The translations under genes were made by a program, and so were the position numbers. From positions 1 to 64,000 of the IMG/VR virus record IMGVR_UViG_3300025645_000054: DNA of 64,000 nt, one strand, 5' to 3'. Origin of the DNA: a virus. Position 1 is the stretch's first letter, and each line of letters starts with the position of its first letter. Shown here piece by piece: positions 34,617-54,178 of this stretch. The notes under the pieces were generated by a model. It saw nothing but the letters and a program-made list of their open reading frames with translations. It was not told the origin of the DNA and did not search any database.

Positions 34617-34635
34617 ATCCAAGTAGGAACACAAG

Positions 34636-36483: not shown

Positions 36484-36670
36484 CAAGACCCTAGACCACG
36501 ACCCCGATCCGAGAGGATTTCACGACCACGACCACGACCCCGATCCAAGATTGCGTAAGTTACGCAATTCCATTCCGAGAGGAACTCAAGACCCTAGACC
36601 ACGACCCCGATCCGAGAGGATTTCACGACCACAACCCAAGATTGCGTAACATTCCGAGAGGAACTCAAGA
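36484..36670 (+). repeat. Tandem duplication (103-bp and 79-bp units) containing operator A and RBS hairpins
   Basis: CAAGACCCTAGACCACGACCCCGATCCGAGAGGATTTCACGACCAC at 36484 and 36587; operator at 36549-36569; half-site at 36640-36650. Confidence 0.9.
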
Positions 36671-37023
36671 TGCTTTTACTATGCCTAGCCCTCAATATCT
36701 ACCACGAGGCCCGAGGGGAGCCGATCACAGGCCAGGAGCTGGTCGCCTCTGTTACGCTGAACCGCGTAGCAAGCCCCCTATACCCCGACAACGTCTGCGA
36801 TGTGGTCTACCAGCCCCGCCAGTTCGCATGGACCGCAGACCCACCCCCAGTGACCGACACGCAGGCCTTCTACACGGCCCTGATGATCGCATGGGATGCC
36901 CAACCCATCAACGAGGCCACCCACTTCTACAGTGGCCCTGCGCCCTATTGGACGCGACACCCAGATTTTCAACTTGTCGGCCGCGTTTCTGGCCACACCT
37001 TTTACAAGGAGACACGCCCGTGA
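36670..37023 (+). CDS. Cell wall hydrolase, SleB/Hydrolase_2 family
   Basis: CLALNIYHEARGE...VTLNRV...CDVVYQPRQFAW...ATHFY...HTFY. Confidence 0.9.
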   Translation: MLLLCLALNIYHEARGEPITGQELVASVTLNRVASPLYPDNVCDVVYQPRQFAWTADPPPVTDTQAFYTALMIAWDAQPINEATHFYSGPAPYWTRHPDFQLVGRVSGHTFYKETRP

Positions 37024-37478
37024 CTTTCATCGTGCACTTCGATCAAGACTCCATGAACCCCCGACAGGAGTTCGACCACCTCGGGACACTCGCTATCCTA
37101 GGGTATGGGGGCGATGAGGCCCCAGACCCTCACAACCCCCCACACGACGCCATCATGCTCCCTGTGTACCGCTACCAGCACTCGGGCGTGGCCTACAGCA
37201 CCACGCCCTTCCACTGCCCATGGGACAGCGGCCAGACGGGATACATCTACGTGTACCGGTCCACCGTCCGCAAAGAATTCAACGTCAAACGGATAAGCCC
37301 CAAGCTCCACGATCGGGTCCTCGAGATCCTCCGTTCGGAAGTCGAGGAGTTCTCCTCGTGGAGTAATGGTGAGGTCTACGGATTCACCAACAATGAAACA
37401 GATGACTCATGCTGGGGCTTCTATGGCCTCGAGTCCTTGATCGCAGAGATTGGAGATAATTATGAATTTGCCCAATAA
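37020..37478 (+). CDS. Conserved hypothetical mobile-element protein
   Basis: GTG start overlapping the upstream stop; YQHSG, CPWDSGQTG and DSCWGFYG motifs. Confidence 0.7.
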   Translation: MTFIVHFDQDSMNPRQEFDHLGTLAILGYGGDEAPDPHNPPHDAIMLPVYRYQHSGVAYSTTPFHCPWDSGQTGYIYVYRSTVRKEFNVKRISPKLHDRVLEILRSEVEEFSSWSNGEVYGFTNNETDDSCWGFYGLESLIAEIGDNYEFAQ

Positions 37479-37824
37479 AGTATTGGCCCTGCAGACCAAA
37501 CTGGTCAGCACACTCGGCAAGCAGCCCTATATCGACGCCCACCTCCTCGTCACTCCTGCCACCGAATCCCCGTACCAGATCTACTGGTACGGCGACAACA
37601 TCAACGAGGCCACCCGCCTCAACCACACCTCCCTCGACCAGCTCTTCCTTGATGCACACCATCTCCTAGACACCATGCCCACGGAAGAGGAGCGCGAACG
37701 TCAGATTTTTGAAACCAATCTGCGGAAGCTGATCGACGAGGCCCCGGCCGGGGTCGACGTCACCCTGCTGCAAACTTTCCAATCCGGGTTTGCCAGCAAC
37801 CAGATCGAAGGACCCCGCTCATGA
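37462..37824 (+). CDS. Hypothetical protein (distant paralogue of 41192-41605)
   Basis: ORF with GGAG RBS; shared P-EE..F...ID..N..P pattern. Confidence 0.7.
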   Translation: MNLPNKVLALQTKLVSTLGKQPYIDAHLLVTPATESPYQIYWYGDNINEATRLNHTSLDQLFLDAHHLLDTMPTEEERERQIFETNLRKLIDEAPAGVDVTLLQTFQSGFASNQIEGPRS

Positions 37825-38456
37825 AGGTCCTCATTGGCTGCGAGTGCAGCGGTGTCGTGCGTGATGCGTTCTTGGCCCAAGGCCACGACGCATGGTCCTG
37901 CGACATCAAACCCGCCGACACCCCCTCGAACCGTCACATCCAAGGCGACATCCTTGACGTCATGGAAGACAGCTCTTGGGATTTCCTTGCCGTGATGCAC
38001 CCTCCGTGTACCCGGCTGTGCAACTCCGGGGTCCGTTGGCTCTCCTCCCCGCCCCCGGGCCGGACCCTTGAAGAAATGTGGGCCGAACTGGACCAAGGCG
38101 CGGAGCTGTTTTCCAAAGTGTGGAACACCACCATCCCCCGTGTCGCGGTGGAGAACCCGGTCATGCACAAACATGCCAAGGCCCGGATCGAGAACTTCCA
38201 GCCTCACTCTCAATCCGTGCAGCCTTGGCAATTTGGCACGGACCCAGAGGGGCCAGACAACGAGAAGAAGCGGACCTGCCTCTGGCTCCGCAATCTGCCC
38301 CTGCTCCAACCCACCGGCACCTTGGACGGAACCCAAGCCCGGTCCTCCGTCCACCATGCGTCACCCGGACCCGATCGCGCAGCCCTGCGCTCCAAGTTCT
38401 TCCCGGGCCTAGCCCAAGCCATGGCCGAACAGTGGGGCCAAGCCAATGCCTGCTGA
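37821..38456 (+). CDS. Short C5-cytosine DNA methyltransferase-like protein
   Basis: [18 protein letters not shown] (catalytic PC), VENP. Confidence 0.75.
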
Positions 38457-38802
38457 AAATGAAGTCGATCTATCGGTGTTGAGCCGTGACCGTCAACTAC
38501 TGCCTCATCCAAAGTTCACGAACTATTTGATCAGTGATCGGGGGGATGTCGTTACCCTATTCTTCAAGAAGCCTCGACTCCGCAAAGGCTCCAAATCCAA
38601 AGACGGGTATCTGGTGGTTTCCATATCGGTCGAGCACCAGCGGGTTGTATCCCGCCGGATCCACAGGCTCGTGGCCGAAACCTTCATCCCTAATCCAGAG
38701 AACAAACCCTGTGTCCGTCATCTGGATGGGGACAAAACCAACAATCGCGTCCCCAACCTTGCTTGGGGGACCCACGCCGAAATGGAAGAAGGAATTGCGT
38801 AA
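38446..38802 (+). CDS. HNH homing endonuclease (NUMOD4/HNH_3 type), probably C-terminally truncated
   Basis: [38 protein letters not shown]. Confidence 0.8.
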
Positions 38803-38813
38803 CTTACGCAATT
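38793..38813. promoter_or_regulatory. Operator motif A (perfect arms)
   Basis: AATTGCGTAA-C-TTACGCAATT. Confidence 0.8.
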
Positions 38814-38847
38814 CTCCTTCCCCTCTCCTCAGAAAGGAACCTATCCA

Positions 38848-39201
38848 ATGAACATCTCCGAACTCTTCGACACCGCCATTGCCGGCCTCGAGGCCCAGAC
38901 CGAGAAGTCCAGCACACCCGGTACGGACCTGTGCCAGTATCATGGCCCCCACGGCACCAAGTGCCTCTTCGGCCACATGATGGACGCTGTACCCGACACT
39001 ATGAACACAGAGACCATCGGGTCCAATGTTATCTTGAAGCTCATCAGAGAATCCAGCGGTGTGGACCTGCTGGACACATTGAAAGCGGCAGACCTCGTGG
39101 CCCTCCAAGACATTCACGACGTCGACTGGAAAGTGGGCTACCCATTCCGCCCCCTGATCCCGGGACACCTGCAACTCAAAATTTGGGGAGATGTCCAATG
39201 A
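38848..39201 (+). CDS. Hypothetical protein, tandem paralogue 1
   Basis: CQYHGPHGTKCLFGH...LQDIHD. Confidence 0.8.
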   Translation: MNISELFDTAIAGLEAQTEKSSTPGTDLCQYHGPHGTKCLFGHMMDAVPDTMNTETIGSNVILKLIRESSGVDLLDTLKAADLVALQDIHDVDWKVGYPFRPLIPGHLQLKIWGDVQ

Positions 39202-39569
39202 CATCCATCGACCAACTCTTCGACACCGCAATCGCCGCTCTCGAGTCCCAGACCGAGAAGTCCATCAACCCCAACACAGACATGTGCCAGTACCGGGGCC
39301 CCCACGGCACCAAATGTCTCTTCGGCCACATGATCGCCGATGAGCATTACGAAAAAGTCACGGACAAATTCAGCACTCCAGTGTCGGATCCCAAGGTCCT
39401 GGAATCCATTTTCGCCTCCACGGGGGTGGATCTGAGATATACCTCTCTCGTCAATGAGATCAACAACCTCCAAGCAATTCACGATCACAAATGGAAACCG
39501 GGCCAACCATTCCGGCCCCTGATCCCAGAGCACCTGCAACTCAAAATTTGGGGGGAGGTCATTACATGA
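39198..39569 (+). CDS. Hypothetical protein, tandem paralogue 2
   Basis: CQYRGPHGTKCLFGH...LQAIHD; ATGA coupling. Confidence 0.8.
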   Translation: MTSIDQLFDTAIAALESQTEKSINPNTDMCQYRGPHGTKCLFGHMIADEHYEKVTDKFSTPVSDPKVLESIFASTGVDLRYTSLVNEINNLQAIHDHKWKPGQPFRPLIPEHLQLKIWGEVIT

Positions 39570-39823
39570 GCTGCTATCTCCCCATCGACGAGGACACGCT
39601 GGCCCAGACCGCCGAGGCCCTCGAGATCCTCAACCCCCTCGGTCGCACCTCCGCCCACCACATCCGGGACATGATCCGGGCCAACATGAATGAACGGCCC
39701 GGGACCTACCTCGCCACCGCTGGCTGGATCGCTTTCACATGGTGCCCTGAGAACGACCCCGACAACCTCCAAATCCGGGTCGCGATCGAGCCCTACACCG
39801 CCCTCAAATATCTGAAAGGATAA
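39566..39823 (+). CDS. Hypothetical protein
   Basis: GGAGG RBS; ATGA coupling. Confidence 0.65.
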   Translation: MSCYLPIDEDTLAQTAEALEILNPLGRTSAHHIRDMIRANMNERPGTYLATAGWIAFTWCPENDPDNLQIRVAIEPYTALKYLKG

Positions 39824-39885
39824 ACCATGAACGTCCGCGACCTCATCTGCCAACTCGAGAACCTCGATCCAGAGGTTCTGATCCT

Positions 39886-40161
39886 ATGACCCAGCGCACC
39901 AACAAGATCGGCCAGAACCGTGGCAAGCCGCGGCTCTGGATCGAGGGCAAGTTCCTTCAAGAGGCCGGGTTCATACCCCCGCTCCGATACAATTTTGAAA
40001 ACAACGTCTTTACCCTCCACCCCGAGGGTAAGCGCAAGATCTCTGGCAAGCCCCAGAGACCCATCATCGACATCACCGGCCGGGACGTTCCCGTTGCCAC
40101 AGCTGTCACCCTGACAATCACCAACCCCGGGGAGATTACCCTTCATGTCCACGAAACTTGA
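39886..40161 (+). CDS. SymE/AbrB-like swapped-hairpin protein
   Basis: PRLWIEGKFLQEAGF resembles the SymE core motif. Confidence 0.5.
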   Translation: MTQRTNKIGQNRGKPRLWIEGKFLQEAGFIPPLRYNFENNVFTLHPEGKRKISGKPQRPIIDITGRDVPVATAVTLTITNPGEITLHVHET

Positions 40162-40363
40162 CACGCTGGCCACAGATTGGGGCTACGCCGACGCCCAGCA
40201 CATGGTCGAAGACTATATATTTGACGGGGTCATGCCCGCCATCTGCCAGAACCCTGGTTGTGACTATTCCACGGAAATGGAACCCGATCAGGATCATGGG
40301 TGGTGCGAAAACTGCTCCACCAACACCCTTCAATCCGCCTCAGTCATGATGGGAATAATCTGA
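40145..40363 (+). CDS. Zinc-ribbon hypothetical protein
   Basis: CQNPGC...MEPDQ..GWCENC. Confidence 0.7.
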   Translation: MSTKLDTLATDWGYADAQHMVEDYIFDGVMPAICQNPGCDYSTEMEPDQDHGWCENCSTNTLQSASVMMGII

Positions 40364-40590
40364 TGAAAACTGTCCCCGGCCCCTCCCGGGTCCTTCTGGC
40401 CATCTGGTATGATTATGAGCTCGAGGTCCTGTCCTGCAAGACCGAGAAGGAAGCCATGGCCAGGATTTCCGAAGAGATCGAAGTGATCAGCGAGACCGGG
40501 CCACTCCTCTTCACCGAGGACGAGGCCTGGGAATATATCAACGATCATGGGATCCCCCTGAATTTCAAAATGAGAAAGGAGTACGACTGA
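40363..40590 (+). CDS. Hypothetical protein
   Basis: TGATG coupling at both ends. Confidence 0.6.
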   Translation: MKTVPGPSRVLLAIWYDYELEVLSCKTEKEAMARISEEIEVISETGPLLFTEDEAWEYINDHGIPLNFKMRKEYD

Positions 40591-41195
40591 TGCCTATGAT
40601 CCAGCTGCCCTTCCAAGGGTTCTATCACACCACCCACTCCTGGCAGATCGACAACGAGTTTGATCGTGTGTCCACAGATTGGGAGGACATCATGGGCTGT
40701 GACATGCCCCAGTCCCTCGCCGATCTCTTCTTCATCGCCGCGGACTTCGCCGCTGCCTATGCGGAGTATGCTCAGGACTATGTCCAAGCCTTCTGCGAGG
40801 AGTTCTTTGACAGCGACGGCACCTTCGACGGGATGGAGTCCCCGAGGGAATACAATTTTGAAACCGATCGGGTCTTCGCCCAGATCTCCGACGAGACCCT
40901 GAAAAAGATCTGGGACGAGACCAGCGCTGAGCGCCTGAGAAAGGTCGCGGCCCGGAGGCACACTTCCTACGACGGGTTCTCCTCGTTCTACTCCTCCGAC
41001 ACCTCCACCTGGGGCCCCTACCAAGAGTGGGACCACAACCAACTGATGACCCTGCTACTGGCATGGTTACCAGAAGACTTTGATGAGATGTGCCTCGTCG
41101 AAGATTTTGAATGCCAAACCCTCTGGAACAAGCCCGAGGCCAACCGGCCTTGGAAGATCTGGAATTACCTGACCTATGAAAGGAAGAACCGATGA
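40590..41195 (+). CDS. Acidic conserved phage protein
   Basis: PFQGFY, SPREYNFETDR and TSYDGFSSFY motifs; AAGGAG RBS. Confidence 0.8.
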   Translation: MPMIQLPFQGFYHTTHSWQIDNEFDRVSTDWEDIMGCDMPQSLADLFFIAADFAAAYAEYAQDYVQAFCEEFFDSDGTFDGMESPREYNFETDRVFAQISDETLKKIWDETSAERLRKVAARRHTSYDGFSSFYSSDTSTWGPYQEWDHNQLMTLLLAWLPEDFDEMCLVEDFECQTLWNKPEANRPWKIWNYLTYERKNR

Positions 41196-41605
41196 ACATC
41201 GAAGAAATTCAAACCACACTTGCCCAACTGGTCGTGCAGATGACCGAAAAGGGGGTCCTCACGCCCAGCACAGAACTGGACATAAAAGACAGCGGCCGGT
41301 TTTCAGTCTACCTGACGGCAAAATACAACTCGGAGGCCTTTGGCCAAGATGGCAACAGCAAATTTCTACATGGGGATACCGCTCCCGAGGCGTTTGCGAA
41401 TGCCTACGCCTACATCCAGGCACTACCCTCCCCCGAAGAAGCACAGACCCGGGAGTTCCTCAAGAGGGTCGCCAACGCGATCGACTTTGCCACGGACCAC
41501 AGCATTGCAGATGAATACGTCACCCCTCTGCGCAGCGTCACCTGTGCCATGACCGAAAACCTCCTGCCGGCACCGGAGATTGCTATGCAATCGAAGAATA
41601 TATGA
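41192..41605 (+). CDS. Hypothetical protein
   Basis: ATGA coupling. Confidence 0.75.
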   Translation: MNIEEIQTTLAQLVVQMTEKGVLTPSTELDIKDSGRFSVYLTAKYNSEAFGQDGNSKFLHGDTAPEAFANAYAYIQALPSPEEAQTREFLKRVANAIDFATDHSIADEYVTPLRSVTCAMTENLLPAPEIAMQSKNI

Positions 41606-41612
41606 CTTTCAG

Positions 41613-41633
41613 AATTGCGTAACTTGCGCAATT
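41613..41633. promoter_or_regulatory. Operator motif A
   Basis: AATTGCGTAACTTGCGCAATT. Confidence 0.8.
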
Positions 41634-41678
41634 TTAAGCCAACCCCCTAACCCCCCAACCCCCATCCGTGAGGATATC

Positions 41679-42407
41679 ATGAAAATCATCGTCAAGTATT
41701 ACGGCCCGGTCACCGTCACCGACCCGGACTATCCCAAGGATCTCCCCAACAAACACTTCAATGTCTGGGGAGACAACCGGCCCACCTTCGAACAGCAGGG
41801 CACTCATGAATATGAGGTGGACTCCAAGCATCTCTTTGATGATCAGGTGAACACCACCTGCGGCAAACGGATCCACGACTGGGCCGATTACATGTCCCCG
41901 AACCGTCATATGCGCTGGGGCCACTACGTGGTCAACATCGATGAGCTGAACAAGTTCCGCCACCAGTATTTCAAGTGCGGATACTGCGGCAACATGGACC
42001 AGACCGGCGGGTGGTGCCAAAAGTGCCGAGGGTCTGAATTCCTGACCCCCGACGTCCACCACCTGCTCCACATGGTGCGCCTTGGGGACAAGCGTGAGAA
42101 ACTTCCCATCCCCGACGACGTCCTCGGGACCATCCACCACGATCAGAAGGCGACGGATGCCCGGAAGCTGAAGCGTAAGCGCCTCCAAATCTTGGCCGAG
42201 ATTGAGAAGAAGGAGACGGATCTCCTCTTCCACGACATTGTCATCAAACGGGGCCTGACCTTTGCCCAGATCAGCAACTGCATCCACTATAGCCACAAGG
42301 ACAAGTTCTGTTTCGGATGGAAAACCCCGGTCTCCGTCGAGGAAGCCGACATCATCGCCAAGGCCATGGAGGGGACTCCGTTTGAGCTGGAGTTCGTCAC
42401 CGTATGA
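41679..42407 (+). CDS. Zn-finger-containing hypothetical protein
   Basis: CGYCG...CQKC; GAGGA RBS. Confidence 0.75.
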   Translation: MKIIVKYYGPVTVTDPDYPKDLPNKHFNVWGDNRPTFEQQGTHEYEVDSKHLFDDQVNTTCGKRIHDWADYMSPNRHMRWGHYVVNIDELNKFRHQYFKCGYCGNMDQTGGWCQKCRGSEFLTPDVHHLLHMVRLGDKREKLPIPDDVLGTIHHDQKATDARKLKRKRLQILAEIEKKETDLLFHDIVIKRGLTFAQISNCIHYSHKDKFCFGWKTPVSVEEADIIAKAMEGTPFELEFVTV

Positions 42408-42504
42408 GTATGACCTGCGACGACCCCTGCGACGACGTATCAAAGGATGTCCAGAAATGGACATCCCCTCCCCCCCCCCCCCAACCCCAATCCGAAAGGA
42501 ACAC

Positions 42505-43098
42505 ATGATGGGATGGACCACCCTTTACGATCGCCCTGATGACCCTAAGGCTTATTTGGCCCGAAATCTAACATGGGAAACAGAAAATTTCTATGCCGCC
42601 CCACTGGCAATTCGAAATGTTGGCAGCACCTACTATGCCGCCACCAAAATGCAACCCAAGCCGGATAAAAAGCTCTCCAATTCTATGAAGAGCAATTACG
42701 TACTGGCCTCAGATGGGTCCGTCGTCTTTGCCGTAGTATACCTCACCTCCGTCAAAAACGGTGAGTTCAGCTACAAAGACATGACCGAGGACATGGGTCC
42801 TAACGAGAGCAAGGCCCCGCCCCTGATCCTTAACCTTCTGTCACCCCTCACGGACCCCCTATGTTATGCCGCCGAGTGGCGGGCTAGGTGCCGGGTATAC
42901 TCCAAGCGTTTCCGTCCAAAAACTGGGGACAACATCCGGATCAAAGAGGCTTGGGAGCCCTACGGTCGAGATTTTGAAAAGGTAAAGTACTACCGATCTC
43001 GGGGCGTGTACCGATCACACAAGAACCAACAACTGGTTCGTTTGAGCTCCCACCAACTGGCCGAGGCCACTCTAATCAAGGATATGAACCCCCGATGA
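42505..43098 (+). CDS. DUF6927-like protein
   Basis: MGWT, GSTYYAA, FSYKDMTEDMGP, EWRARC (family recalled from memory). Confidence 0.65.
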   Translation: MMGWTTLYDRPDDPKAYLARNLTWETENFYAAPLAIRNVGSTYYAATKMQPKPDKKLSNSMKSNYVLASDGSVVFAVVYLTSVKNGEFSYKDMTEDMGPNESKAPPLILNLLSPLTDPLCYAAEWRARCRVYSKRFRPKTGDNIRIKEAWEPYGRDFEKVKYYRSRGVYRSHKNQQLVRLSSHQLAEATLIKDMNPR

Positions 43099-43355: not shown

Positions 43356-43356
43356 T

Positions 43357-44861: not shown

Positions 44862-44886
44862 CCACACCGTATCCGAGGAGGATCAC

Positions 44887-45267
44887 ATGCAAGAACAAGA
44901 AGCCGCCACCATCCTTGCCGCCCTGCGCTATTATCAGGAGAACGGTCAGGGGGATCCCGCGAACCGAACCCAGTGGACCCACGACATCGCCACCAACATG
45001 GACCTCGTGGTCTCACTGGACGACGACGGGATCGATGAGCTGTGCGAAAAGCTCAATCAGGAGCCTGAGGTCTCGGTCTTCACCGTCTCACGACTGACCG
45101 ATGCCTATGTCGTCCACACCCAGGAAGTCATCACGGACACAGCCGAGGAAGCGCTCAGGATCTCTCGGCTCTTTCCGGAGCGCTGGGTCTCTTCCCACGT
45201 CTCTGAATTCGATCATCATGACTACACTGTCCACGACGCAGATGGCGACGAGGTGATCGGGATATGA
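44887..45267 (+). CDS. Hypothetical protein
   Basis: ATILAALRYYQ...IDELCEKLN; GGAGG RBS. Confidence 0.75.
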   Translation: MQEQEAATILAALRYYQENGQGDPANRTQWTHDIATNMDLVVSLDDDGIDELCEKLNQEPEVSVFTVSRLTDAYVVHTQEVITDTAEEALRISRLFPERWVSSHVSEFDHHDYTVHDADGDEVIGI

Positions 45268-45792: not shown

Positions 45793-46370
45793 AACTCTGG
45801 ACAGTAATCGTCAACGACCAATATGGCCCTTCCGTTGAAATCTACAGAACTCAAGTGGAGGCCAACGAGGCCGCTTGGGATTTTGCCGACACCTTTTGGC
45901 AAGAGGAAAAAGGAGGAGACACGCCCGAAGACTGGGAGGACGCCATGGAAATTCTGTGGGAGCAACCTCTGTTCATCGACAGTGTCCATATGGATTGTCA
46001 CGAGGTCATTCCCCCCGAGCCAGAGCGGAACCTGATCGAAGATATCCTTGCCGCCTCCGTCCCCGACCTACGGGATGGGGATCTCGAGGTGGATGAGAAC
46101 ATGGCAGTGGTGTCCCTTGGGGAAGATCCCGGGGCCTATGTCCAGTGCTGGAAATGGGTCGATTTCGAAGACGTCGATCAGGACATGGCCCTGATCCCGC
46201 CAGATGGTCCGGTTTGGTATTTTGATCTCTTCTCGGAGTTCATGATGGCCTACGCCGAGGCCCCTGAAGGTACCATCATGAAGCGGGGCACACCCGAGCT
46301 CCTCGAACAGAGTGGGGGGATGATCCATGACGCCGAGGAGTTCATCCACTGGATGGAGGCGAAGGCATGA
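45789..46370 (+). CDS. Very acidic hypothetical protein
   Basis: GAGGA RBS; D/E-rich. Confidence 0.75.
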   Translation: MKLWTVIVNDQYGPSVEIYRTQVEANEAAWDFADTFWQEEKGGDTPEDWEDAMEILWEQPLFIDSVHMDCHEVIPPEPERNLIEDILAASVPDLRDGDLEVDENMAVVSLGEDPGAYVQCWKWVDFEDVDQDMALIPPDGPVWYFDLFSEFMMAYAEAPEGTIMKRGTPELLEQSGGMIHDAEEFIHWMEAKA

Positions 46371-46666
46371 GCGCTTATCACCAGCTGACCGCAATCATGG
46401 AGGCTCACCCGGACCTTGTTTTCTGCAACGACGGGTACCAGAACCTCCCCGCCGAAATCGTGGAAGCCAACAAGGAGACCATTCAGGAGATTGAAAAAAT
46501 CCTGAAGGAGAAAGTCTGGGGGTTCGTGTCTTTCCAGAATTTCAAACCCCGCAAAGATGGCTCCATGGCTGTGCGATATCAGGCCCGCTACGACGAGAAC
46601 ACAGGCTTCGTGGGGGTGGTGTACACCCCTCTGGCAGAATTTCAGGAGAAAACCAATGACTATTGA
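46367..46666 (+). CDS. Hypothetical protein
   Basis: GGAGG RBS; ATGA coupling. Confidence 0.7.
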   Translation: MSAYHQLTAIMEAHPDLVFCNDGYQNLPAEIVEANKETIQEIEKILKEKVWGFVSFQNFKPRKDGSMAVRYQARYDENTGFVGVVYTPLAEFQEKTNDY

Positions 46667-46988
46667 ACCAAACAATTTCTTTGCCACACCAACAGATATG
46701 GCTGATCTCATGCGACGGCTGAAACTTTACAGCGGCCCAGAGTGCGTGGCCGCATCAATGGGTGCCGGGATGGCCTGGAACCTTGCGGCCAAGGTCTCCA
46801 ACACCCGGCCCCCGGAACTCTGGGCCAACTACCAAGACGATTTCAATTCCATGAGCGACGACGATATCCGCCAAGAAACCCAGGGGGCTCAGCAGCTCAT
46901 TGATGAAAGTGAGCGCTGGGTCGAGGCGGTGGCCATGTGGACCGCAGCCGGTCGTCCTCGCACCTCAGACAAGGAGGAGAGGGCATGA
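46656..46988 (+). CDS. Hypothetical protein
   Basis: AGGAG RBS. Confidence 0.65.
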   Translation: MTIEPNNFFATPTDMADLMRRLKLYSGPECVAASMGAGMAWNLAAKVSNTRPPELWANYQDDFNSMSDDDIRQETQGAQQLIDESERWVEAVAMWTAAGRPRTSDKEERA

Positions 46989-47320
46989 AGAACGACACAG
47001 AAGAACTGTTCCAGAAGTGTCAAGAGGCCCGGTCAAAGTTACGGGAAGCAAGGCAGTTTCTGACCCAAGAGAATGACAAATACCGTGAGGCACTGATCCG
47101 AGACAGGATCGCTGAACTGGAAGCCGCCGGCATGCCCCTAGGGTCAAAGGTCAGGGCGTATCACGGGGAATTCTTTCAGGGTGAATACTTAATCCAAAGC
47201 GTTTCGGTCCCTTTGGGTAAGGCCCGCATCCATCTCTGCAAATTCAAGAAAGACGGAACGCCTTATCTCAAGACACCACGCGTCTCGTTCGACCGCCTTG
47301 AGCCAGTACAGGAGACGTAA
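46985..47320 (+). CDS. Hypothetical protein
   Basis: AGGAGG RBS; ATGA coupling. Confidence 0.65.
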   Translation: MKNDTEELFQKCQEARSKLREARQFLTQENDKYREALIRDRIAELEAAGMPLGSKVRAYHGEFFQGEYLIQSVSVPLGKARIHLCKFKKDGTPYLKTPRVSFDRLEPVQET

Positions 47321-47358
47321 CCTAACTTCCCCCCCCCACCCCCATCCGAGAGGATCAC

Positions 47359-48117
47359 ATGAAAACCTATATTATTTACGAGGGGCCCAGCCTCCTCGAT
47401 GGCCAGCCTATTGTGGCACTGGCCCAGATCGGTAGCAACAATACCAAGACTGGCAACCAGCTTCAGACATACATCTTCAGGGCGGACATAGATCCGCTGG
47501 AGGCCAGCAGGAGCGGCGAAGATTTCAGCATCTGTGGCAACTGCACCCTCCGGGGCGTGGCCCACGGCGGCAACGAAGGACAGGCCCGGGACCGGGCCTG
47601 CTACGTGGTCCTGTTTCAAGCCCCCTTGGGCAAGTACCGGGCCTACAAGAGGGGAAGCTATTCCCGGGCCACCGACATCGCTGCGATCGGCCGGGGCAAG
47701 ACCGTCCGCATCGGAAGTTACGGAGACGGTCTGGCGGTCCCCGAGAGAATTTGGGATGAGTTGTGCAGCGAGGCCAATGGCCACACAGCCTATACCCACC
47801 AAAAGAATACCCAACCACACCGGTTTATGACCTCGGTGGAGAGCTTGGGAGAGGCAGAACAAGCATGGGACCGCGGAGAACGCACTTTCCGCGTTGTCAA
47901 ATCAGTCGAGCAGATGGTCAAAGGAGAAGTGCTGTGCCCCGCTTCGAAAGAGGCAGGCCAGCGTACCACCTGTGTCAGCTGCCAGCTATGTGCTGGCAAC
48001 TCCAAAAAAGGAAAGTCCATTGCCATCGTGGCACATGGAAATGGAGGTAAGAAGCTGCGCCAACGACTGGAGACGACCAATGATCTCACACAAAGTGATG
48101 CTCATAACAGGGTCTAA
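47359..48117 (+). CDS. Cys-rich phage protein, radical-SAM-like/Fe-S candidate
   Basis: YEGPSLLDG, NTKTG, ICGNC...CYV, RIGSYGD, YTH, CPAS..CxxCxLC, HG. Confidence 0.6.
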   Translation: MKTYIIYEGPSLLDGQPIVALAQIGSNNTKTGNQLQTYIFRADIDPLEASRSGEDFSICGNCTLRGVAHGGNEGQARDRACYVVLFQAPLGKYRAYKRGSYSRATDIAAIGRGKTVRIGSYGDGLAVPERIWDELCSEANGHTAYTHQKNTQPHRFMTSVESLGEAEQAWDRGERTFRVVKSVEQMVKGEVLCPASKEAGQRTTCVSCQLCAGNSKKGKSIAIVAHGNGGKKLRQRLETTNDLTQSDAHNRV

Positions 48118-48307
48118 GGCCCAAGATGCATTCAATGAGGGAGAGAGAAACCCCAATAAATTATTGGACCTAGGCTACTGCCAAGTGTTCTCATTCCGAA
48201 CGAGGGATGAGAAAGTCGCGTTCATAGAAGGCCTTAGGATAGGATCCAAAACAGTCAACCCTTGGCTATTTGATCTTTCCGAGTCCGTTCTCTTTCGCGA
48301 TACCTGA
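48080..48307 (+). CDS. Hypothetical protein
   Basis: GGAG RBS; FRTRDEKVAFIEG. Confidence 0.55.
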   Translation: MISHKVMLITGSKAQDAFNEGERNPNKLLDLGYCQVFSFRTRDEKVAFIEGLRIGSKTVNPWLFDLSESVLFRDT

Positions 48308-48622
48308 CCGACGAGTGGAATAATTTGAGGGCACAAACGGATAATCTTCCGGGAGCCCCCAGCGTTCTATGTACTGCTCGTCGGTCATACCGTGGTGAGT
48401 TTTGAGATACCGGCGCAGGAGTTTCACTTCTGCCCCGTCCTCAAGGCACACCAGATAGTCATCGTGGACCGACTCCTCGATCGGCACCGCCGGTACCAGA
48501 ACCGGATCCCTCAGATTTTCGAGAGCCTCTTTGATAGCCACAAGGGTGTCAGGGAGTTTTTCGAGGGGAACTTTGTTGTTGGCCAGATAGGCTGCAGCCA
48601 GAGTAATGATGTCGCGGTTCAT
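48266..48622 (-). CDS. mucR: Ros/MucR-family transcriptional regulator
   Basis: AYLANN, PAVPIEESVHDDYLVCLEDG, GMT..QY..RWGLP.DYP, RRS.IAK..GLG; GGAGG RBS. Confidence 0.92.
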   Translation of the reverse strand: MNRDIITLAAAYLANNKVPLEKLPDTLVAIKEALENLRDPVLVPAVPIEESVHDDYLVCLEDGAEVKLLRRYLKTHHGMTDEQYIERWGLPEDYPFVPSNYSTRRSGIAKENGLGKIK

Positions 48623-48637
48623 AATACCTCCCAAGAG

Positions 48638-48665
48638 ATTTCCATGCAATGTCTTGCATGGAAAT
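48638..48665. promoter_or_regulatory. Inverted pair of motif B between divergent mucR and KTSC-xis-int
   Basis: ATTTCCATGCAA-TGTC-TTGCATGGAAAT. Confidence 0.8.
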
Positions 48666-48705
48666 GTCGACAACTGTCAACCACCAAAGTAAAAGGAAGA
48701 TAACC

Positions 48706-49074
48706 ATGAAGGACGAAAAAATGACCAAAGATGAAATTCATATCCGTAAAGCTCCCTCCTGGGCCTGGAGGGTAATCGACGAACTCATTTCAGACCACCT
48801 GGGGAGCTCCCTCATCAAATCGGCCGCGGATCAGATGTTTGAAGATGTGGAGGTGGTCATGCAACCCGTGGTGAGCAGCAACATCGCAGCGGTAGGGTTC
48901 AGGGAATTTTGCGGACTCATGGTAGTCCAGTTCAAGAACGGGTCAATCTATCAATATGATAATGTTACCCCAGAGTTGTATCACGAAATCGTGAACGCTG
49001 ACTCCGTGGGCTCGACCTTTAACCGGGTGGTCAAGTCCAACCCGACCGCGTACCCCTTCACCAAGCTCATCTAG
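48706..49074 (+). CDS. KTSC-domain protein
   Basis: PVVSSNIAAVGF...VQFKNGSIYQYDNV...ADSVGSTFNR. Confidence 0.85.
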   Translation: MKDEKMTKDEIHIRKAPSWAWRVIDELISDHLGSSLIKSAADQMFEDVEVVMQPVVSSNIAAVGFREFCGLMVVQFKNGSIYQYDNVTPELYHEIVNADSVGSTFNRVVKSNPTAYPFTKLI

Positions 49075-49096
49075 AGCGGTAATCCGAGAGGATCTC

Positions 49097-49414
49097 ATGC
49101 TTACAACTTCCGATGTCGCGGGCCGGCTGAACGTCAGCTCCCGTACCGTACAGCGCCTCATCCAAAGTGAGGGGTTGCCAGCGTTCCGCATCGGAGGGCA
49201 TTATCGCTACGTCGAGCAGGAGCTCGATCGTTGGCTAGTCCGTAAACGTATGAGGACCACATGGAACAAGGACAAGGTCGCGTCTACACGCGCCCCGAGA
49301 GCAGGTCATACTGGATCGAATATAGAAGTTCTGACGGACGGAAAATTCGAAGATCTGCTAAAACCCAAGACAAGAAAGAAGCTGAAGCCGAGCTGGGAAG
49401 GCTCCTTCGGTTGA
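49097..49414 (+). CDS. xis: Excisionase-like HTH protein
   Basis: MLTTSDVAGRLNVSSRTVQRLI..GLPAFRIGGHYRY; overlaps int. Confidence 0.85.
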   Translation: MLTTSDVAGRLNVSSRTVQRLIQSEGLPAFRIGGHYRYVEQELDRWLVRKRMRTTWNKDKVASTRAPRAGHTGSNIEVLTDGKFEDLLKPKTRKKLKPSWEGSFG

Positions 49415-50304
49415 GGACCTCGATTTCCTTCAAAGAGGCGGTCGTGGACTTCTTCGAGGTGAATGGCCACGGGCGTCTCAAGCCCAAAACCATTCAGAAC
49501 TACGAAACCTCTCTCAGAGCGGTGGCTCCACTTTTTTCAGAATTGTCTTTGGACGAGATCCGAACGGATCAGCTCAAACAATTGGTACGTGAACGGCGCA
49601 AGACTGTGTCGGACACATCTGTGAAGAGGGATCTCGCTTTTGTCTCAAGCGTGTTCAGTCATGCAATTGGGACCATGCCGCAGGCACCGGAAACTAACCC
49701 TGTTCTTAGCTTCAGTAAACGTCACCTAAAGGAACAGGCAAGAACCCGGTGGCTGCGGCCGCACGAGTATGATCGGCTCATTGAGAGCTGCCAAAACCCC
49801 ACACAAGCACTGGTCATCAAGACCGCAACCCTGACCGGGATGCGGCACACTGAGCTGTCCAGTCTCCGGAAGGGGATGATCAATTTTCAGAAAAAGGAGG
49901 TCATACTAGATGTTGATCTGACGAAGAACGGAAAGGAGCGGGTCGTACCCCTCTGTGCGTCACTGTGTTTCGACCTGGAACAGCTGTGTCTACGAACACC
50001 GGGGGATTTAGTGTTCTGCTATATGCATGGCGCTACCCGGGAGTGGAGATCTTATCAGAATTTCTCCAACTTCTGGGATGGTGTTCGAACCCGAGCCAAC
50101 TTGAAAGATGTGAGGTTTCACGACCTTAGGCATACTTTCGCCTCGTGGTGGGTACAGGCAAATGGGGATCTGCTGCGACTGAGGGACATCCTCGGACACA
50201 GCTCTCTCCAGATGGTCCAGCGGTATGCCCACCTGAACACAGGCGGGCATCACGCGGAGATAAACGAGGTGTTCGAAACACACTTTGCACACAGCCTCGA
50301 ATAA
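49261..50304 (+). CDS. int: Tyrosine integrase
   Basis: TGMRHTE, TKNG, FHDLRHTFAS, LGHSSLQMVQRY (R-K-H-R-H-Y catalytic set). Confidence 0.96.
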   Translation: MEQGQGRVYTRPESRSYWIEYRSSDGRKIRRSAKTQDKKEAEAELGRLLRLRTSISFKEAVVDFFEVNGHGRLKPKTIQNYETSLRAVAPLFSELSLDEIRTDQLKQLVRERRKTVSDTSVKRDLAFVSSVFSHAIGTMPQAPETNPVLSFSKRHLKEQARTRWLRPHEYDRLIESCQNPTQALVIKTATLTGMRHTELSSLRKGMINFQKKEVILDVDLTKNGKERVVPLCASLCFDLEQLCLRTPGDLVFCYMHGATREWRSYQNFSNFWDGVRTRANLKDVRFHDLRHTFASWWVQANGDLLRLRDILGHSSLQMVQRYAHLNTGGHHAEINEVFETHFAHSLE

Positions 50305-50339
50305 TACCGGACACAGACCCCGGGTAAGTCTTTGATAAG

Positions 50340-50389
50340 TGGTGAGCCGTGCAGGATTCGAACCTGCGACCCACTGATTAAAAGTCAGT
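50340..50389 (-). mobile_element. attP core = 3' 50 nt of tRNA-Lys(UUU)
   Basis: Reverse complement ACTGACTTTTAATCAGTGGGTCGCAGGTTCGAATCCTGCACGGCTCACCA: anticodon arm, T arm and CCA, but no D arm. It lies 35 nt after int, with an IHF consensus at 50325-50337. Confidence 0.92.
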
Positions 50390-50520
50390 ACTAGCCAGCG
50401 TCAAAATTAATCTAAGGTACTGGTTTCACTCACTTATCACTGACGACACCCGGGGTCATGTGCGCCAGGAAACCCTGTTCGCGACACACTTTTGCGGACA
50501 CAGCACATTTGGTAGGCATC

Positions 50521-50916
50521 ATGAAGAATACGCAACGAAACAACGGCATCGCCCAGGAGTATATCCGGGGCTCAACTCTGGAGCAGATCTCTTCAGAGTA
50601 TGGGATTTCCCCCCGGATGATCAGGTACATCCTGACCCAGAAGGGCCTCAGAGCTGAGGACCGTAAAAAACAACCCTCTTTTGATCTGGCTCCAAGCCCC
50701 CGCAGCCAACTTCATCTAAAGATTGGACAGCGGCTCTATGAGGCTTACTTTGTTAAGAGGGGTCTAAGCCGCGCCGAAGCGGCGGTCAAAATGGGGATCA
50801 GTGCCAAGGGTTTGAGGAACCTTGAGAGCGGAAGATCGAATATTGACCTGCTGACTTTGCAGAACATTGCAGGTTTCATGGAAATAAGTGTGGGAGAACT
50901 CATTGATGGCAGTTGA
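50521..50916 (+). CDS. Double-HTH regulator (N-terminal HTH + XRE domain), candidate repressor
   Basis: TLEQISSEYGISPRMIRYIL and GLSRAEAAVKMGISAKGLRNLESG. Confidence 0.8.
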   Translation: MKNTQRNNGIAQEYIRGSTLEQISSEYGISPRMIRYILTQKGLRAEDRKKQPSFDLAPSPRSQLHLKIGQRLYEAYFVKRGLSRAEAAVKMGISAKGLRNLESGRSNIDLLTLQNIAGFMEISVGELIDGS

Positions 50917-51085
50917 TAATCGGCTATATAAATATTTCCGGAATGTGTGGTTGTTCCGAACAACAGGACAGGAAGTGTACAAGAACATGCTAATTCAGCA
51001 AGCACAGGCACCCCATACCCCCGAGGGTCGCGCGGCCCTCCGTGTGGTTCAGAAAGAACAATGGGGGGTATATGCAACAGGTTGA
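50906..51085 (+). CDS. Hypothetical protein
   Basis: GGGAG RBS; overlaps its neighbours. Confidence 0.5.
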   Translation: MAVDNRLYKYFRNVWLFRTTGQEVYKNMLIQQAQAPHTPEGRAALRVVQKEQWGVYATG

Positions 51086-51773
51086 CACATTCGGTATCCA
51101 TTGGGACGGGCCGATCGCGTGGTTACAACAGGGAAGAGGGGGCTCCAATTTTTTGGGGCTCCATAAAAAGTCGCCATTCAAAAATCCATCAGGAGCCTGT
51201 AACCATCTGGTCCCTGTGGCCGCGCCGATCCCTGATCGGGTTCACTGGGAGGCCCTACTCAAGATCAATGATGACCCACTGGTACAAGCGATGCTGCCGG
51301 TGCCAAAAGAGGTGGGCTCTCGGCTCTACTACATTGTGGATCCCCACGATGATTTGAACCTCTACATCTCCTGCCTCTCTCGTTTCAGTTCCCCCATCCG
51401 ACCGGTCATGAAACCGGAATGGATGATGACGAAAAAAGCTCTGGAGCGGGAACTCCTCTCGACGAACATCCAACCTCTGGTGATCACGCAGGTGAAGAGG
51501 ACAGACATGAAACTGGTGGCAGCCCTCGCGGCCTCCACCAACTACCTACCGCGGACGTTGATTCTGAGCGGGGCCGGGGATATCCCTCTGCCGCCTCAGT
51601 ATCAACTGATCGAGACAAAAATCCGAGACACGGATATTTCAGACCTCGTGACCCTGCCCCTTGAAACCATCGGGGCAACTCTGATCCGCCGTTACATGCG
51701 CAACGAAGATCTTTTTGGCCCCATCGAGTCCCGGCAAGCCCGCCGGGAACGGTTGAACCAAGAGAAACCCTAA
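51072..51773 (+). CDS. Hypothetical protein
   Basis: Long ORF filling the operon gap. Confidence 0.7.
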   Translation: MQQVDTFGIHWDGPIAWLQQGRGGSNFLGLHKKSPFKNPSGACNHLVPVAAPIPDRVHWEALLKINDDPLVQAMLPVPKEVGSRLYYIVDPHDDLNLYISCLSRFSSPIRPVMKPEWMMTKKALERELLSTNIQPLVITQVKRTDMKLVAALAASTNYLPRTLILSGAGDIPLPPQYQLIETKIRDTDISDLVTLPLETIGATLIRRYMRNEDLFGPIESRQARRERLNQEKP

Positions 51774-51798
51774 CCCCAAACCAATCCGTGAGGAATTT

Positions 51799-54072: not shown

Positions 54073-54144
54073 TCTCTGGGGTTTTCCCTGTTGCTCCAGA
54101 GACTCCGGCCTTCCCCTAGCGTCCTCCCACGTGGGGGGAAGGCC
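54073..54144 (+). ncRNA. Two-hairpin structured RNA with a CCUCCC loop (cuckoo-like)
   Basis: Stems TCTCTGG/CCAGAGA and GGCCTTCCCC/GGGGAAGGCC; loops TTTTCCCTGTTG and CCTCCC. Confidence 0.45.
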
Positions 54145-54178
54145 ACCCCCACACCCCCCCCATAAATTCGAGGTTATT

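Follow-up and report, generated by a model that had tools for sequence, protein, structure and literature searches.

The PeSLs of T4-type phages are units of ~50 nt, each of which combines an early promoter with a stem-loop. Closer to the element analyzed here are the start-associated sequences (SAS) of mycobacteriophages, described in 2011 (PMC3203893; see also PMC11373665 and PMC12699233), the function of which was still called unknown in 2024-2025 (Adephagia, PMC11373665; K4 survey, PMC12699233). The element that we analyzed, here called the tag, was found in a window of 64,000 nucleotides (positions 1 to 64,000 of IMG/VR record IMGVR_UViG_3300025645_000054) from a temperate siphophage with a 76.8-kb genome. 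Distant kin of this source phage (G000) are Achromobacter phage JWF and Caulobacter phage Seuss, and its host is probably a proteobacterium. Three full-length relatives and one fragment, all from metagenomes, also carry the tag, and its bearers are a small set of related uncultured temperate phages; the relatives compared with the source phage were G001, G003, G004, and G411.

The tag consists of (A)TCC, a purine-rich loop of 4 to 6 nt, and GGA(T), usually followed after 3 to 4 nt (up to 9 nt) by ATG. The 3' part of the loop and the 3' arm together supply its Shine-Dalgarno sequence, GAGG, AAGGA, or GGAGGA. The copies in the window and the elements that flank them are listed in Table 1. A preliminary description of this DNA had listed five ATCC-GNRA-GGA sites with a 4-nt gap to ATG, and their positions and loops were correct on re-check, as was a pentaloop variant at 44871. 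The statement that the gap is exactly 4 nt and that loops vary only within GNRA holds for these five sites in the window, but in the relatives the spacing is 3 to 9 nt, loops are 4, 5, or 6 nt long, and one of them is ATGA. An additional pentaloop copy at 34618, missing from that list, directly adjoins the 3' side of a palindromic box. Four copies at 36507 to 36662 had also been reported, and all four are present, but a tandem duplication of 103 bp (98% identity across 50 nt) has produced them as two pairs, and ATG follows the last one alone. Where the source phage has its orphan copies, at the beginning of the early arm, G001 has tag copies with a start-stop or a mini-ORF.

Table 1. Tag copies and flanking elements in the window
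Positions	Strand	Feature	Gap to start	Start codon and gene; remarks
34598-34614		Sister palindromic box
34617..34638	+	Pentaloop copy, A-TCC-AAGTA-GGA	7 nt	ATG, 283-aa gene; CM 14.9 bits
35736-35752		Sister palindromic box
36507..36518	+	Orphan copy, ATCC-GAGA-GGAT		No start codon; first unit of 103-bp tandem duplication
36551-36567		Sister palindromic box
36573..36584	+	Orphan copy, TTCC-GAGA-GGAA		Duplicate of functional 36652 copy, ACC in place of ATG
36610..36621	+	Orphan copy		Recent duplicate of 36507-36518
36652..36672	+	TTCC-GAGA-GGAA	7 nt	ATG, Hydrolase_2 (cell-wall hydrolase) gene
38795-38811		Sister palindromic box
41615..41631	+	Palindromic box, TTGCGTAA-n-TTRCGCAA type		Upstream of tag
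41641..41663	+	G-free, C-rich leader		Between palindromic box and tag; tract confirmed at 41651
41664..41681	+	ATCC-GTGA-GGAT	4 nt	ATG, 242-aa gene (phrog_26133)
42461..42489	+	G-free, C-rich tract		Run of 13 C; small hairpin 5' of tract
42490..42510	+	ATCC-GAAA-GGAA	4 nt	ATGATG, DUF6927 gene
44871..44889	+	Pentaloop copy, ATCC-GAGGA-GGAT	4 nt	ATG, 126-aa gene
47325..47343	+	G-free, C-rich tract
47344..47361	+	ATCC-GAGA-GGAT	4 nt	ATG, phrog_2554/DUF7227 gene
49082..49099	+	ATCC-GAGA-GGAT	4 nt	ATG, HTH_17 excisionase-like gene
51768..51783	+	Helicase leader, G-free, A/C-rich
51784..51801	+	ATCC-GTGA-GGAA	4 nt	ATG, helicase gene
54143..54163	+	polA-leader C-rich tract		Predicted 3' arm of G/C stem-loop

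The string TCCGNRAGGA occurs nine times in the window, always on the + strand, compared with 2.05 ± 1.43 times in shuffled sequences, none of which (0 of 100) reached nine. The exact 4-nt gap to ATG is found in five tag copies and the pentaloop variant. Although the 76.8-kb genome contains 50 TCC-N4-GGA sites, GAGA, GTGA, or GAAA loops are limited to the nine tag copies. In four related genomes, start-linked copies on the early-gene strand number 10, 19, 6, and 9, with 0 to 1 on the opposite strand; Markov simulations gave ~1, with a maximum of 4 to 6. Full genomes hold 6 to 19 copies compared with ~1 expected. In the full genomes of the tag-bearing phages, all copies are on the early-gene strand and no structural gene is preceded by a tag. 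For 189 RBS-like GGA sites from three phages, TCC is the trinucleotide most often present 4 nt upstream (n = 16; runner-up, n = 8), it is present 5 nt upstream in 10 cases, and every TCC-preceded site is in the non-structural arm. Possible hosts rarely contain the tag: its density is ~0.3 per Mb in 401 sampled Alphaproteobacteria genomes, each with ≤6 copies, compared with 65 per Mb in the phage. (One match each from the unpublished genomes G050 and G250 is counted here, and the rarity is independent of both.) We conclude that the tag is real and under selection, and these data support an mRNA-sense, translation-linked element that is neither a chance string nor a plain host-type ribosome-binding site.

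Orthologous genes keep the tag at 50 to 70% protein identity, whereas the immediately preceding sequence cannot be aligned. This conservation amid scrambled intergenic bases indicates purifying selection on bases that the ribosome does not need, namely, ATCC and the first G of the loop. In 23 of 24 copies the loop opens with G, even when the base at position 2 would disrupt Shine-Dalgarno pairing. The arms are retained across loops of 4, 5, and 6 nt, as in the orthologous pair of phrog_26133 genes, in which the GTGA of the source phage corresponds to ATCC-GTAGGA-GGAT in G411. The DUF6927 ortholog in G001 has the same TCC-GAAA-GGAACAC-ATGATG core, preceded by G rather than A. The core at the phrog_2554/DUF7227 gene is identical in G000, G001, G003, and G004; 76 other phages with a phrog_2554 gene have ordinary Shine-Dalgarno sequences there. 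The excisionase-like gene keeps its tag in G001 with an 8-nt spacer, and the helicase ortholog has ATCC-GAGA-GGAT in G411 and no tag in G003. One tag copy of G003 has TCA in place of TCC. BLAST blocks shared by G000 and G001 start exactly at the tag (42491 and 47344), and at the rare GAGGA variant the upstream genes are orthologous in these two phages and the downstream genes are unrelated. The tag indeed marks gene-swap seams, or mosaic junctions.

Our preferred reading, to which we assign a probability of roughly 0.55, is that the tag is a portable, start-associated ribosome-binding cassette peculiar to this lineage, working in cis on the mRNAs of early non-structural genes. The UCC(A) 5' arm would pair with GGA(U) to form a GNRA-capped mini-hairpin of 3 to 4 bp and about -3 to -5 kcal/mol. 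This fast local hairpin would shield the Shine-Dalgarno sequence from long-range pairing with upstream sequence and would be weak enough to be opened by the 30S subunit, which may use the unstructured stretch before the tag as a kind of standby site while it waits. Each tagged gene would thereby obtain a similar, context-independent translation start. Context independence would suit accessory genes exchanged between phages, and the presence of the tag at mosaic junctions fits such a start for swapped genes. The sequence of the tag, its position, orientation, enrichment, and conservation, the retention of its arms, and the seams are direct observations, whereas we infer hairpin formation in vivo, an effect on translation, and a standby role for the upstream stretch. 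The hairpins are predicted by ViennaRNA to be weak, with energies of -2.7 to -5.3 kcal/mol in isolation and helix probabilities of 0.11 to 0.99 in a 70-nt context. The Shine-Dalgarno GGA is predicted to be paired with a median probability of 0.89 at tagged sites versus 0.64 at untagged sites (p = 7e-6), but the 70-nt tag contexts do not fold better than shuffles (z of -1.5 to +0.9).

A distinctly less probable explanation, but one with some weight, is that the tag is a plain Shine-Dalgarno sequence with shared ancestry and no selected structure. A ribosome-binding site of ~20 nt would be copied along with gene cassettes, recombination at mosaic junctions would homogenize the string, and the TCC arm and the spacer would hitchhike. 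Consistent with this, the conserved stretch extends beyond the arms, from -2 to +17 with the spacer included, there are two clear subfamilies, small GGA duplications could yield the 5- to 6-nt loops, the tag is at the starts or ends of homology blocks, and cellular genomes occasionally use the same 17- to 18-mer as an ordinary ribosome-binding site. Spacer C residues at +11 and +13 are conserved as strongly as the arms, which counts against the insulated cassette since the hairpin leaves the spacer unexplained. The preliminary description had argued that because the loop varies only within GNRA, structure appears selected. Retention of the arms and co-variation of the fourth pair speak for this view, but the GNRA argument itself is confounded, because the Shine-Dalgarno core is formed by GGA together with loop positions 3 and 4, and the core pairs show no variation; most of the GNRA pattern is a requirement of Shine-Dalgarno pairing with ..CCUCCUU... 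In the alignment of tags across phages, the three invariant core pairs give no covariation signal and are silent on structure, which also fits the plain Shine-Dalgarno explanation. The fourth pair is formed in 24 of 33 sites compared with 15.7 in shuffles (p = 0.0002) and, with one site per downstream gene family, in 19 of 27 compared with 12.3 (p = 0.001), as A:T, T:A, and one G:C, although two cassette subfamilies (ATCC..GGATCAC and ..GGAACAC) could produce this signal, and the 3' flank of the operator box, which supplies the T in 4 of 6 T:A cases, is another possible source. The overall covariation score is not significant (reached by 116 of 500 shuffles; the observed percentage paired was reached by 29 of 500). 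What argues against a plain Shine-Dalgarno sequence is that the fourth-pair association persists with one site per family, that ATCC and loop G1, which are not part of the Shine-Dalgarno sequence, are kept at diverged orthologs next to scrambled bases, and that the highly expressed structural genes lack the tag and use AAAGGA with a spacing of 7 to 8 nt.

Rather unlikely, in our estimate, is a class-wide translational operator, in which a phage- or host-encoded RNA-binding protein would read the hairpin and switch the early class on or off; this was the main idea of the preliminary description, taken here minus nut/rut and with the C-rich flank as optional. The limitation of the tag to one temporal and functional class and conservation in excess of ribosome needs are consistent with an operator, the gene-less copies in G000 and the start-stop and mini-ORF copies in G001 could titrate a factor, and in the analogous SAS system a trans factor is suspected, though unproven. 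However, the orphan copies are a very recent duplication, and we found no candidate binding protein, the early small proteins being without Pfam or PHROG function. The KTSC protein that had been put forward is shared by JWF, Lumi, and Seuss, all of which are without the tag. On a trans-acting RNA-binding protein as such the evidence is neutral, neither for nor against.

We regard as improbable a DNA-level site, modeled on the orientation-specific "stoperators" of Cluster A mycobacteriophages, in which the ATCC/GGAT inverted repeat would be bound by a phage MucR-like or HTH protein. The genes of the source phage, a temperate one, include those for ROS_MUCR and HTH proteins, the sites are confined to the early arm, and the palindromic arms with their A:T, T:A, and G:C fourth-position changes fit a DNA palindrome too. 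Yet half-sites of 3 to 4 bp with a spacing that varies from 4 to 6 bp do not suit a dimeric DNA binder well, the loop is strongly strand specific and purine rich, the site is tied to the start codon, and the 17-bp palindromic box upstream is a much better operator candidate.

Four G-free, C-rich tracts had been reported before tags, and a similar one before polA. Three of the four are real (41651, 42461, and 47325), but the stretch at 51768 is A/C-rich. The tracts are 16 to 30 nt long, and a G-poor, C/A-rich stretch is found upstream of many copies. The 20 nt upstream of tags are enriched in C (39% versus 31.5%, p = 0.008) and not significantly depleted of G (p = 0.16). Orthologous tagged sites do not share the tracts; there, the closest relative has unrelated sequence or even an intrinsic terminator: G001 lacks the tract of the DUF6927 gene, and in place of that at 47325 it has an intrinsic-terminator-like hairpin and T-run 10 nt upstream of the tag. 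The C-tract is kept in the polA leaders of G000, G001, and G003, and polA in G000 has no TCC/GGA tag; since the polA tract is the predicted 3' arm of a G/C-rich stem-loop, pairing with an upstream G-run, we treat it as a different kind of element, separate from the tag. The translation-linked, mRNA-sense part of the original proposal is supported, but a nut/rut-like antitermination or Rho-loading switch, with the hairpin as boxB and the C-rich tract as Rho entry site, is very improbable despite the three upstream tracts, the terminator-like hairpin in G001, and the conserved polA tracts, because no boxA is near any tag (the sole GCTCTTWA match, at 17192, is in the structural region and at chance level), the stem is 3 to 4 bp rather than 5, the 6 to 19 copies per genome are at many ribosome-binding sites rather than once per operon, the polA tract is predicted to pair with an upstream G-run, and the tag-associated tracts are both unconserved and well below the typical rut length known from lambda tR1.

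Compared with known systems, the tag, like the lambda nut boxB, involves a GNRA-type loop on a small hairpin, in mRNA sense and in the phage early region, but boxB has a 5-bp stem, a pentaloop, a boxA partner, one copy per early operon, and a location outside the ribosome-binding site, none of which characterizes the tag. In hairpins that sequester the Shine-Dalgarno sequence next to standby sites (de Smit and van Duin; Espah Borujeni et al. 2014, PMC3936740), as in the tag, the Shine-Dalgarno sequence is in a local hairpin with a single-stranded flank that can accommodate a waiting 30S subunit; the published model is a general one of the physics, whereas the tag is a repeated genomic motif with a predicted hairpin at the weak end of the range. 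Like PeSLs, tags are repeated stem-loop regulatory units that border small accessory genes at points of gene exchange between relatives, but the tag, at ~20 nt, is a ribosome-binding hairpin, with any promoter or operator located in a separate upstream box. The system that the tag resembles most in its organization is the SAS/ESAS of mycobacteriophages. The SAS consensus, GGGATAGGAGCCC, is unrelated in sequence, and its host is an actinobacterium rather than, probably, a proteobacterium. The 3' arm of the tag overlaps the Shine-Dalgarno sequence, with a loop of 4 to 6 nt, whereas in SAS the Shine-Dalgarno core is between the outer GGG and CCC; some tag copies have C-rich leaders, unlike SAS; and the tag shows fourth-pair covariation, whereas Pope et al. 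(PMC3203893) found no support for RNA pairing of the ESAS repeats. Nevertheless, both are short asymmetric motifs with a Shine-Dalgarno core and symmetric outer bases (GGG..CCC in SAS and (A)TCC..GGA(T) in the tag), located 3 to 9 nt before the ATG of 11 to 19 genes from different families, in a single orientation and, within the genomes of temperate siphophages, confined to the non-structural arm. Both are conserved beyond the needs of rRNA pairing and rare in cellular genomes, and some members of each have an inverted-repeat box ahead of them, ESAS for SAS and the 17-bp palindromic box for the tag; the arrangement of palindromic box and tag resembles ESAS.

Within the window, TCCGNRAGGA occurs nine times, compared with 2.05 +/- 1.43 times in shuffled sequence, and all nine matches are on the + strand. 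In five of these copies exactly 4 nt separate the motif from the ATG of a long open reading frame (ORF), and the same is true of a pentaloop variant at 44871, which bears out the copy number, the spacing, and the variant reported in the preliminary description. A further pentaloop copy lies ahead of the gene at 34636. There are 50 TCC-N4-GGA sites in the whole genome, and loops of GAGA, GTGA or GAAA are present only in the nine copies. The four copies also described at 36.5 kb are indeed there, but they are two pairs that arose by a 103-bp tandem duplication, and only the last precedes a gene (with a 7-nt spacer), while the others have ACC or ACG in place of ATG. We refer to the element as the tag: (A)TCC, a purine-rich loop of 4 to 6 nt, GGA(T), a short spacer, and ATG, with the Shine-Dalgarno sequence inside the predicted mini-hairpin.

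The record behind the window is 76,798 bp long, of which the window covers the first 64 kb. Structural genes occupy the - strand from 1 to 31 kb, and a + strand arm from 31.8 to 67 kb encodes a primase-helicase, an integrase, an excisionase-like HTH protein, a helicase, PolA, and many small unknown genes. The terminase and PolA are 40 to 47% identical to those of JWF (Achromobacter), Lumi (Xylophilus), Seuss (Caulobacter) and related ~80-kb siphophages of Proteobacteria. The ROS/MucR regulator, a Hydrolase_2 lysin encoded in the window, and the KTSC protein point to an alphaproteobacterial host. The tRNA-like stretch beside the integrase gene is likely a tRNA-derived attP core, a candidate that could help to find this host. 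Positions of these and other features are collected in the table.

Features of the window, with positions in nucleotides
Feature	Position	Strand	Remark
17-bp palindromic boxes, TTGCGTAA-n-TTACGCAA type	34598-34614, 35736-35752, 36551-36567, 38795-38811, 41615-41631		Head five early gene blocks
Tags with a palindromic box ahead	34618, 36574, 36653, 41665		Half box at 36653
Tandem CGCGCC hexamers (~11)	35575-35650		Large intergenic region, beside other palindromes
HNH_3/NUMOD4 homing-endonuclease-like gene	38446-38802		In early arm
G-free, C-rich tracts	41651, 42461, 47325
A/C-rich tract	51768
Run of 13 C	42474-42486		Intergenic leader; slippage-prone
GGATCAC	47351-47358		3' arm and spacer of commonest tag; also in other type-1 tags
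ROS/MucR regulator	48266-48622	-	E=1e-31
KTSC-domain gene	48706-49074	+	Adjoins ROS/MucR gene, divergent
Excisionase-like ORF	49097-49414		Overlaps integrase ORF by ~150 nt in a different frame; likewise in G001
Integrase ORF	49261-50304		Ribosome-binding site in a GTCC...12 nt...GGAC arrangement, kept in this genome and G001
tRNA-like match	50343-50412	-	Rfam RF00005, 25.2 bits vs gathering score 29 (sub-threshold); just 3' of integrase gene

The tag is also carried by three full-length metagenomic relatives, namely G001 (a 73-kb provirus with ~65 to 75% nucleotide identity and the same gene order), G003 (73.7 kb) and G411 (75.3 kb, 50 to 70% protein identity, same gene order), and by a relative known as a fragment, G004. 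Start-linked copies with purine-rich loops of 4 to 6 nt on the early-gene strand number 10 in our genome, 19 in G001, 6 in G003 and 9 in G411, while the opposite strand of each has 0 to 1; first-order Markov simulations give an expectation of ~1 and a maximum of 4 to 6. At the head of the early arm of G001 (L019, - strand, ~15600-15700; reverse complement, 57453-57552), one tag is followed by an ATG-TAA start-stop, and the second leads into a mini-ORF of 18 codons, which spans the palindromic box and terminates in an ATGA that overlaps the start of the following gene. The ATG has been lost from the corresponding copies in our genome.

The tag was not found in the cultured distant relatives JWF, Lumi, Seuss and KB12-38, and 76 other phages with a homolog of the phrog_2554 gene, which is tagged in the window, have no tag and ordinary GGAG-type sites instead; the tag is accordingly restricted to a small clade. 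A 12-kb megablast query gave no match among cultured phages, and helicase-based scans of genome and metagenome contigs found no relatives. An even sample of 401 Alphaproteobacteria genomes yields 335 matches to TCCGNRAGGA-N4-ATG (~0.3 per Mb), with no more than 6 in any one genome, compared with 65 per Mb in the phage. G050 and G250, which are unpublished, are in this sample with one match each, and the conclusion is independent of both. An 18-mer version of the tag has 96 scattered matches in 185k species genomes, which is about chance, and no single genome has several. These sparse matches indicate that the motif is not a common cellular ribosome-binding site in the genomes searched.

When the 24 tetraloop copies are aligned, positions -2 to +17 are conserved and read AA-TCC-G-a-G-A-GGA-W-C-W-C-ATG (consensus AA-TCC-GNRA-GGA-WCAC-ATG). 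The first loop position is G in 23 of 24 and the fourth is A in all 24; the second is A in 17, T in 5, C in 1 and G in 1, and the third is G in 19 and A in 5. There are two subfamilies, ATCC-GNGA-GGAT-CAC-ATG and TCC-GAAA-GGAA-CAC-ATG(ATG). Other loops occur in TCC-[TC]GAAA-GGA and TCC-GAGGA-GGA (G001), in ATCC-GTAGGA-GGAT and TTCC-TTCGGA-GGAA (G003), and in six ATCC-GWWGGA-GGAT copies (G411), and at one orthologous gene the loop is GTGA in our genome and GTAGGA in G411, with identical arms. These variants, together with the orthologous pair, indicate that the arms are kept while loop length changes. Among 189 ribosome-binding-site-like GGA sites from three phages, TCC is the most frequent trinucleotide 4 nt 5' of GGA (16 sites; the next has 8) and stands at 5 nt in 10 sites, and none of the TCC-bearing sites is ahead of a structural gene. 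Structural genes have AAAGGA or GGAG with spacers of 7 to 8 nt. Conservation extends beyond the positions that pair with rRNA to the TCC, the first loop G and the C residues of the spacer. We conclude that the tag is a genuine ribosome-binding cassette, specific to this lineage and under selection.

In BLAST comparisons of our genome with G001, aligned blocks begin exactly at the tag at 42491 and at 47344, and the sequence upstream is unalignable. At 44871 the arrangement is reversed: the upstream genes are orthologous, a rare GAGGA tag is common to both phages, and the genes that follow are unrelated. Our genome has one tagged gene from 40.3 to 42.5 kb, while the corresponding interval of G001 has five different tagged genes. 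Together, these observations indicate that the tag marks points at which single genes are exchanged. The most likely reading, to which we give a probability of roughly 55%, is that the tag is a portable translation start, insulated from its context, whose position coincides with cassette seams. If it is only a portable ribosome-binding site, it is a modest, useful annotation rule for this phage group, by which start codons can be fixed and cassette seams recognised.

The leading alternative is that the copies resemble each other by pure ancestry, with no role for structure. A GNRA tetraloop hairpin is a G-N-R-A loop closed by a Watson-Crick helix, and 23 of 24 tetraloop copies fit GNRA, with R, A and the 3' arm also under Shine-Dalgarno constraint; loops of 5 to 6 nt and one ATGA loop exist. 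R-A-G-G-A stands for GAGGA or AAGGA, either of which can pair with ..CCUCCUU.. at the 3' end of 16S rRNA (the string GGAUCACCUCCUU was checked and is present in five alphaproteobacterial genomes), and the GNRA signature is mostly what Shine-Dalgarno pairing demands. In GAAA copies the real start typically lies 7 nt further downstream (ATGATG or ACACACG-ATG), as a shift in the paired register would predict. Pairing with rRNA leaves only the first loop G and the TCC arm unexplained. The three core pairs are invariant across copies and hence uninformative on structure, the covariation score of the tetraloop alignment is not significant (reached by 116 of 500 shuffles; percentage paired, by 29 of 500), and 70-nt contexts have no excess folding stability over shuffles.

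The evidence on the other side is a fourth, flanking pair, which is formed in 24 of 33 sites compared with 15.7 after shuffling (p=0.0002), and in 19 of 27 compared with 12.3 (p=0.001) when one site is taken per downstream gene family. These pairs are A:T, T:A and one G:C, with the caveats that the GGAT copies all belong to one subfamily and that in 4 of 6 T:A cases the T comes from the 3' flank of an upstream palindromic box; most sites have no fifth or sixth pair. Isolated hairpins are predicted at -2.7 to -5.3 kcal/mol (ViennaRNA), with in-context helix probabilities of 0.11 to 0.99, and the Shine-Dalgarno GGA has a median predicted pairing of 0.89 at tagged sites compared with 0.64 at untagged sites (p=7e-6), a difference that is partly true by construction. 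The earlier proposal that structure is selected, with covariation across related phages as its check, is favoured by the fourth pair but not by the core pairs, the GNRA loop or the alignment score. Selection on hairpin structure appears moderately supported, and we consider pure ancestry unlikely, and less likely than a portable translation start.

GGATCAC exactly matches the seven 16S rRNA bases directly 5' of the anti-Shine-Dalgarno sequence (GGATCACCTCCTT was checked and is present in five alphaproteobacterial genomes), which may be a coincidence. Pairing of the 5' arm AUCC with 16S GGAU was rejected because the segments follow each other on the mRNA in the wrong order for a duplex continuous with the Shine-Dalgarno helix.

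We find it harder to credit a class-wide translational operator, in which an RNA-binding factor, encoded by the phage or hijacked from the host, would recognise the GNRA-type hairpin that encloses the Shine-Dalgarno sequence and switch the early and accessory genes as a set. The copies stacked at the early-arm head, with no gene or only a start-stop, would then be a decoy or titration array. The suggestion that the KTSC protein reads the tag gains nothing, since KTSC is present in G001, G003 and G411 and also in JWF, Lumi and Seuss, which have no tag. CsrA/RsmA sites present GGA in a hairpin loop; this type was rejected because GGA is the 3' arm of the stem in tetraloop copies, although the 6-nt loops of G411 do hold a loop GGA. 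RNA-thermometer and RegB-type readings were dropped because a U-rich partner for pairing is missing and most copies lack GGAG. Rfam covariance models found no family at any tag between 34000 and 55000, even at E<=1.

A DNA-level site is a very improbable reading beside a portable translation start. Distinct from the tag itself are the palindromic boxes, which stand ahead of several tags in our genome and of at least four sites in G001. A scan of the boxes for the sigma-70 consensus gave no promoter, and scans for sigma-70 promoters and intrinsic terminators gave no enrichment and none at tags. A related box, CTGCGCAnnnTGCGCAAT, is found in G001, and a different repeated box, GCACTGCAAA, in G411.

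The preliminary description also proposed a nut/rut-like switch, with G-free, C-rich tracts at four tags and ahead of polA. Such tracts, 16 to 30 nt long, are confirmed at three tags, but the fourth is A/C-rich, and the tract ahead of polA has a G-run upstream as its predicted pairing partner; the polA leader is the only place where a C-tract is kept in three phages. Across the class, the 20 nt upstream of tags are 39% C compared with 31.5% (p=0.008), and G-depletion there is not significant (p=0.16). At orthologous tagged sites, G001 has unrelated sequence where our genome has C-tracts, and one such site has a canonical terminator-like hairpin and T-run 10 nt 5' of the tag. The run of 13 C may differ in length from one virion to another, or the assembly may not give its length reliably. 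A rut site is long (roughly 60 to 80 nt), C-rich, G-poor, unstructured RNA, and was rejected on tract length, flank composition and the lack of conservation at orthologous sites. A lambda-type nut has a boxA (CGCTCTTA-like) a few nucleotides 5' of the hairpin, and its boxB has a 5-bp stem and a GNRA-like pentaloop, with one or two sites per early operon and no overlap with a ribosome-binding site. The tag has a stem of 3 to 4 bp and 6 to 19 sites per genome, each overlapping the Shine-Dalgarno sequence, and the only boxA candidate is a single chance-level GCTCTTWA match at 17192, far from every tag. With no boxA, no Rfam match, and C-tracts replaced in G001, nut/rut is unsupported, and it is scarcely credible next to a portable translation start.

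Among known systems, the tag comes closest to the start-associated sequences (SAS) of Cluster K mycobacteriophages, which have been known since 2011 and whose function was still stated to be unknown in 2024-2025 (PMC3203893, PMC11373665, PMC12699233). The SAS is an asymmetric motif with symmetric ends and a Shine-Dalgarno core (13-bp consensus GGGATAGGAGCCC, <=2 mismatches allowed), located 3 to 9 nt 5' of the ATG of 11 to 19 non-structural genes of different families, in one orientation; it is rare in the host, and a subset has an inverted-repeat box ahead that holds a promoter (the extended form, ESAS) (PMC3203893, PMC12699233). Like the SAS, the tag has a single orientation, occurs in the non-structural arm only and lies 3 to 9 nt ahead of start codons, most of them ATG, and it holds a Shine-Dalgarno core with conservation past the rRNA-pairing positions. 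In contrast, its sequence does not match the SAS consensus and is unrelated to it, and its probable host group differs, so the tag does not belong to the SAS family. Its hairpin form is also more explicit, and because this form is clear and the arms are kept across variable loops, the RNA-structure hypothesis is easier to test than in the SAS. The 17-bp palindromic boxes ahead of several tags resemble the ESAS, and the different boxes of our genome, G001 and G411 suggest an operator with a specificity that varies from phage to phage, as in the ESAS. If the operator reading of the tag were true, the tag would be a tractable proteobacterial counterpart to the SAS. A second, unrelated phage lineage has reached the SAS layout, which is embedded in the ribosome-binding site, has symmetric ends, is restricted to early genes and is partly coupled to a box. 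This suggests a general solution that gives swappable genes a reliable start, either context-independent or co-regulated.
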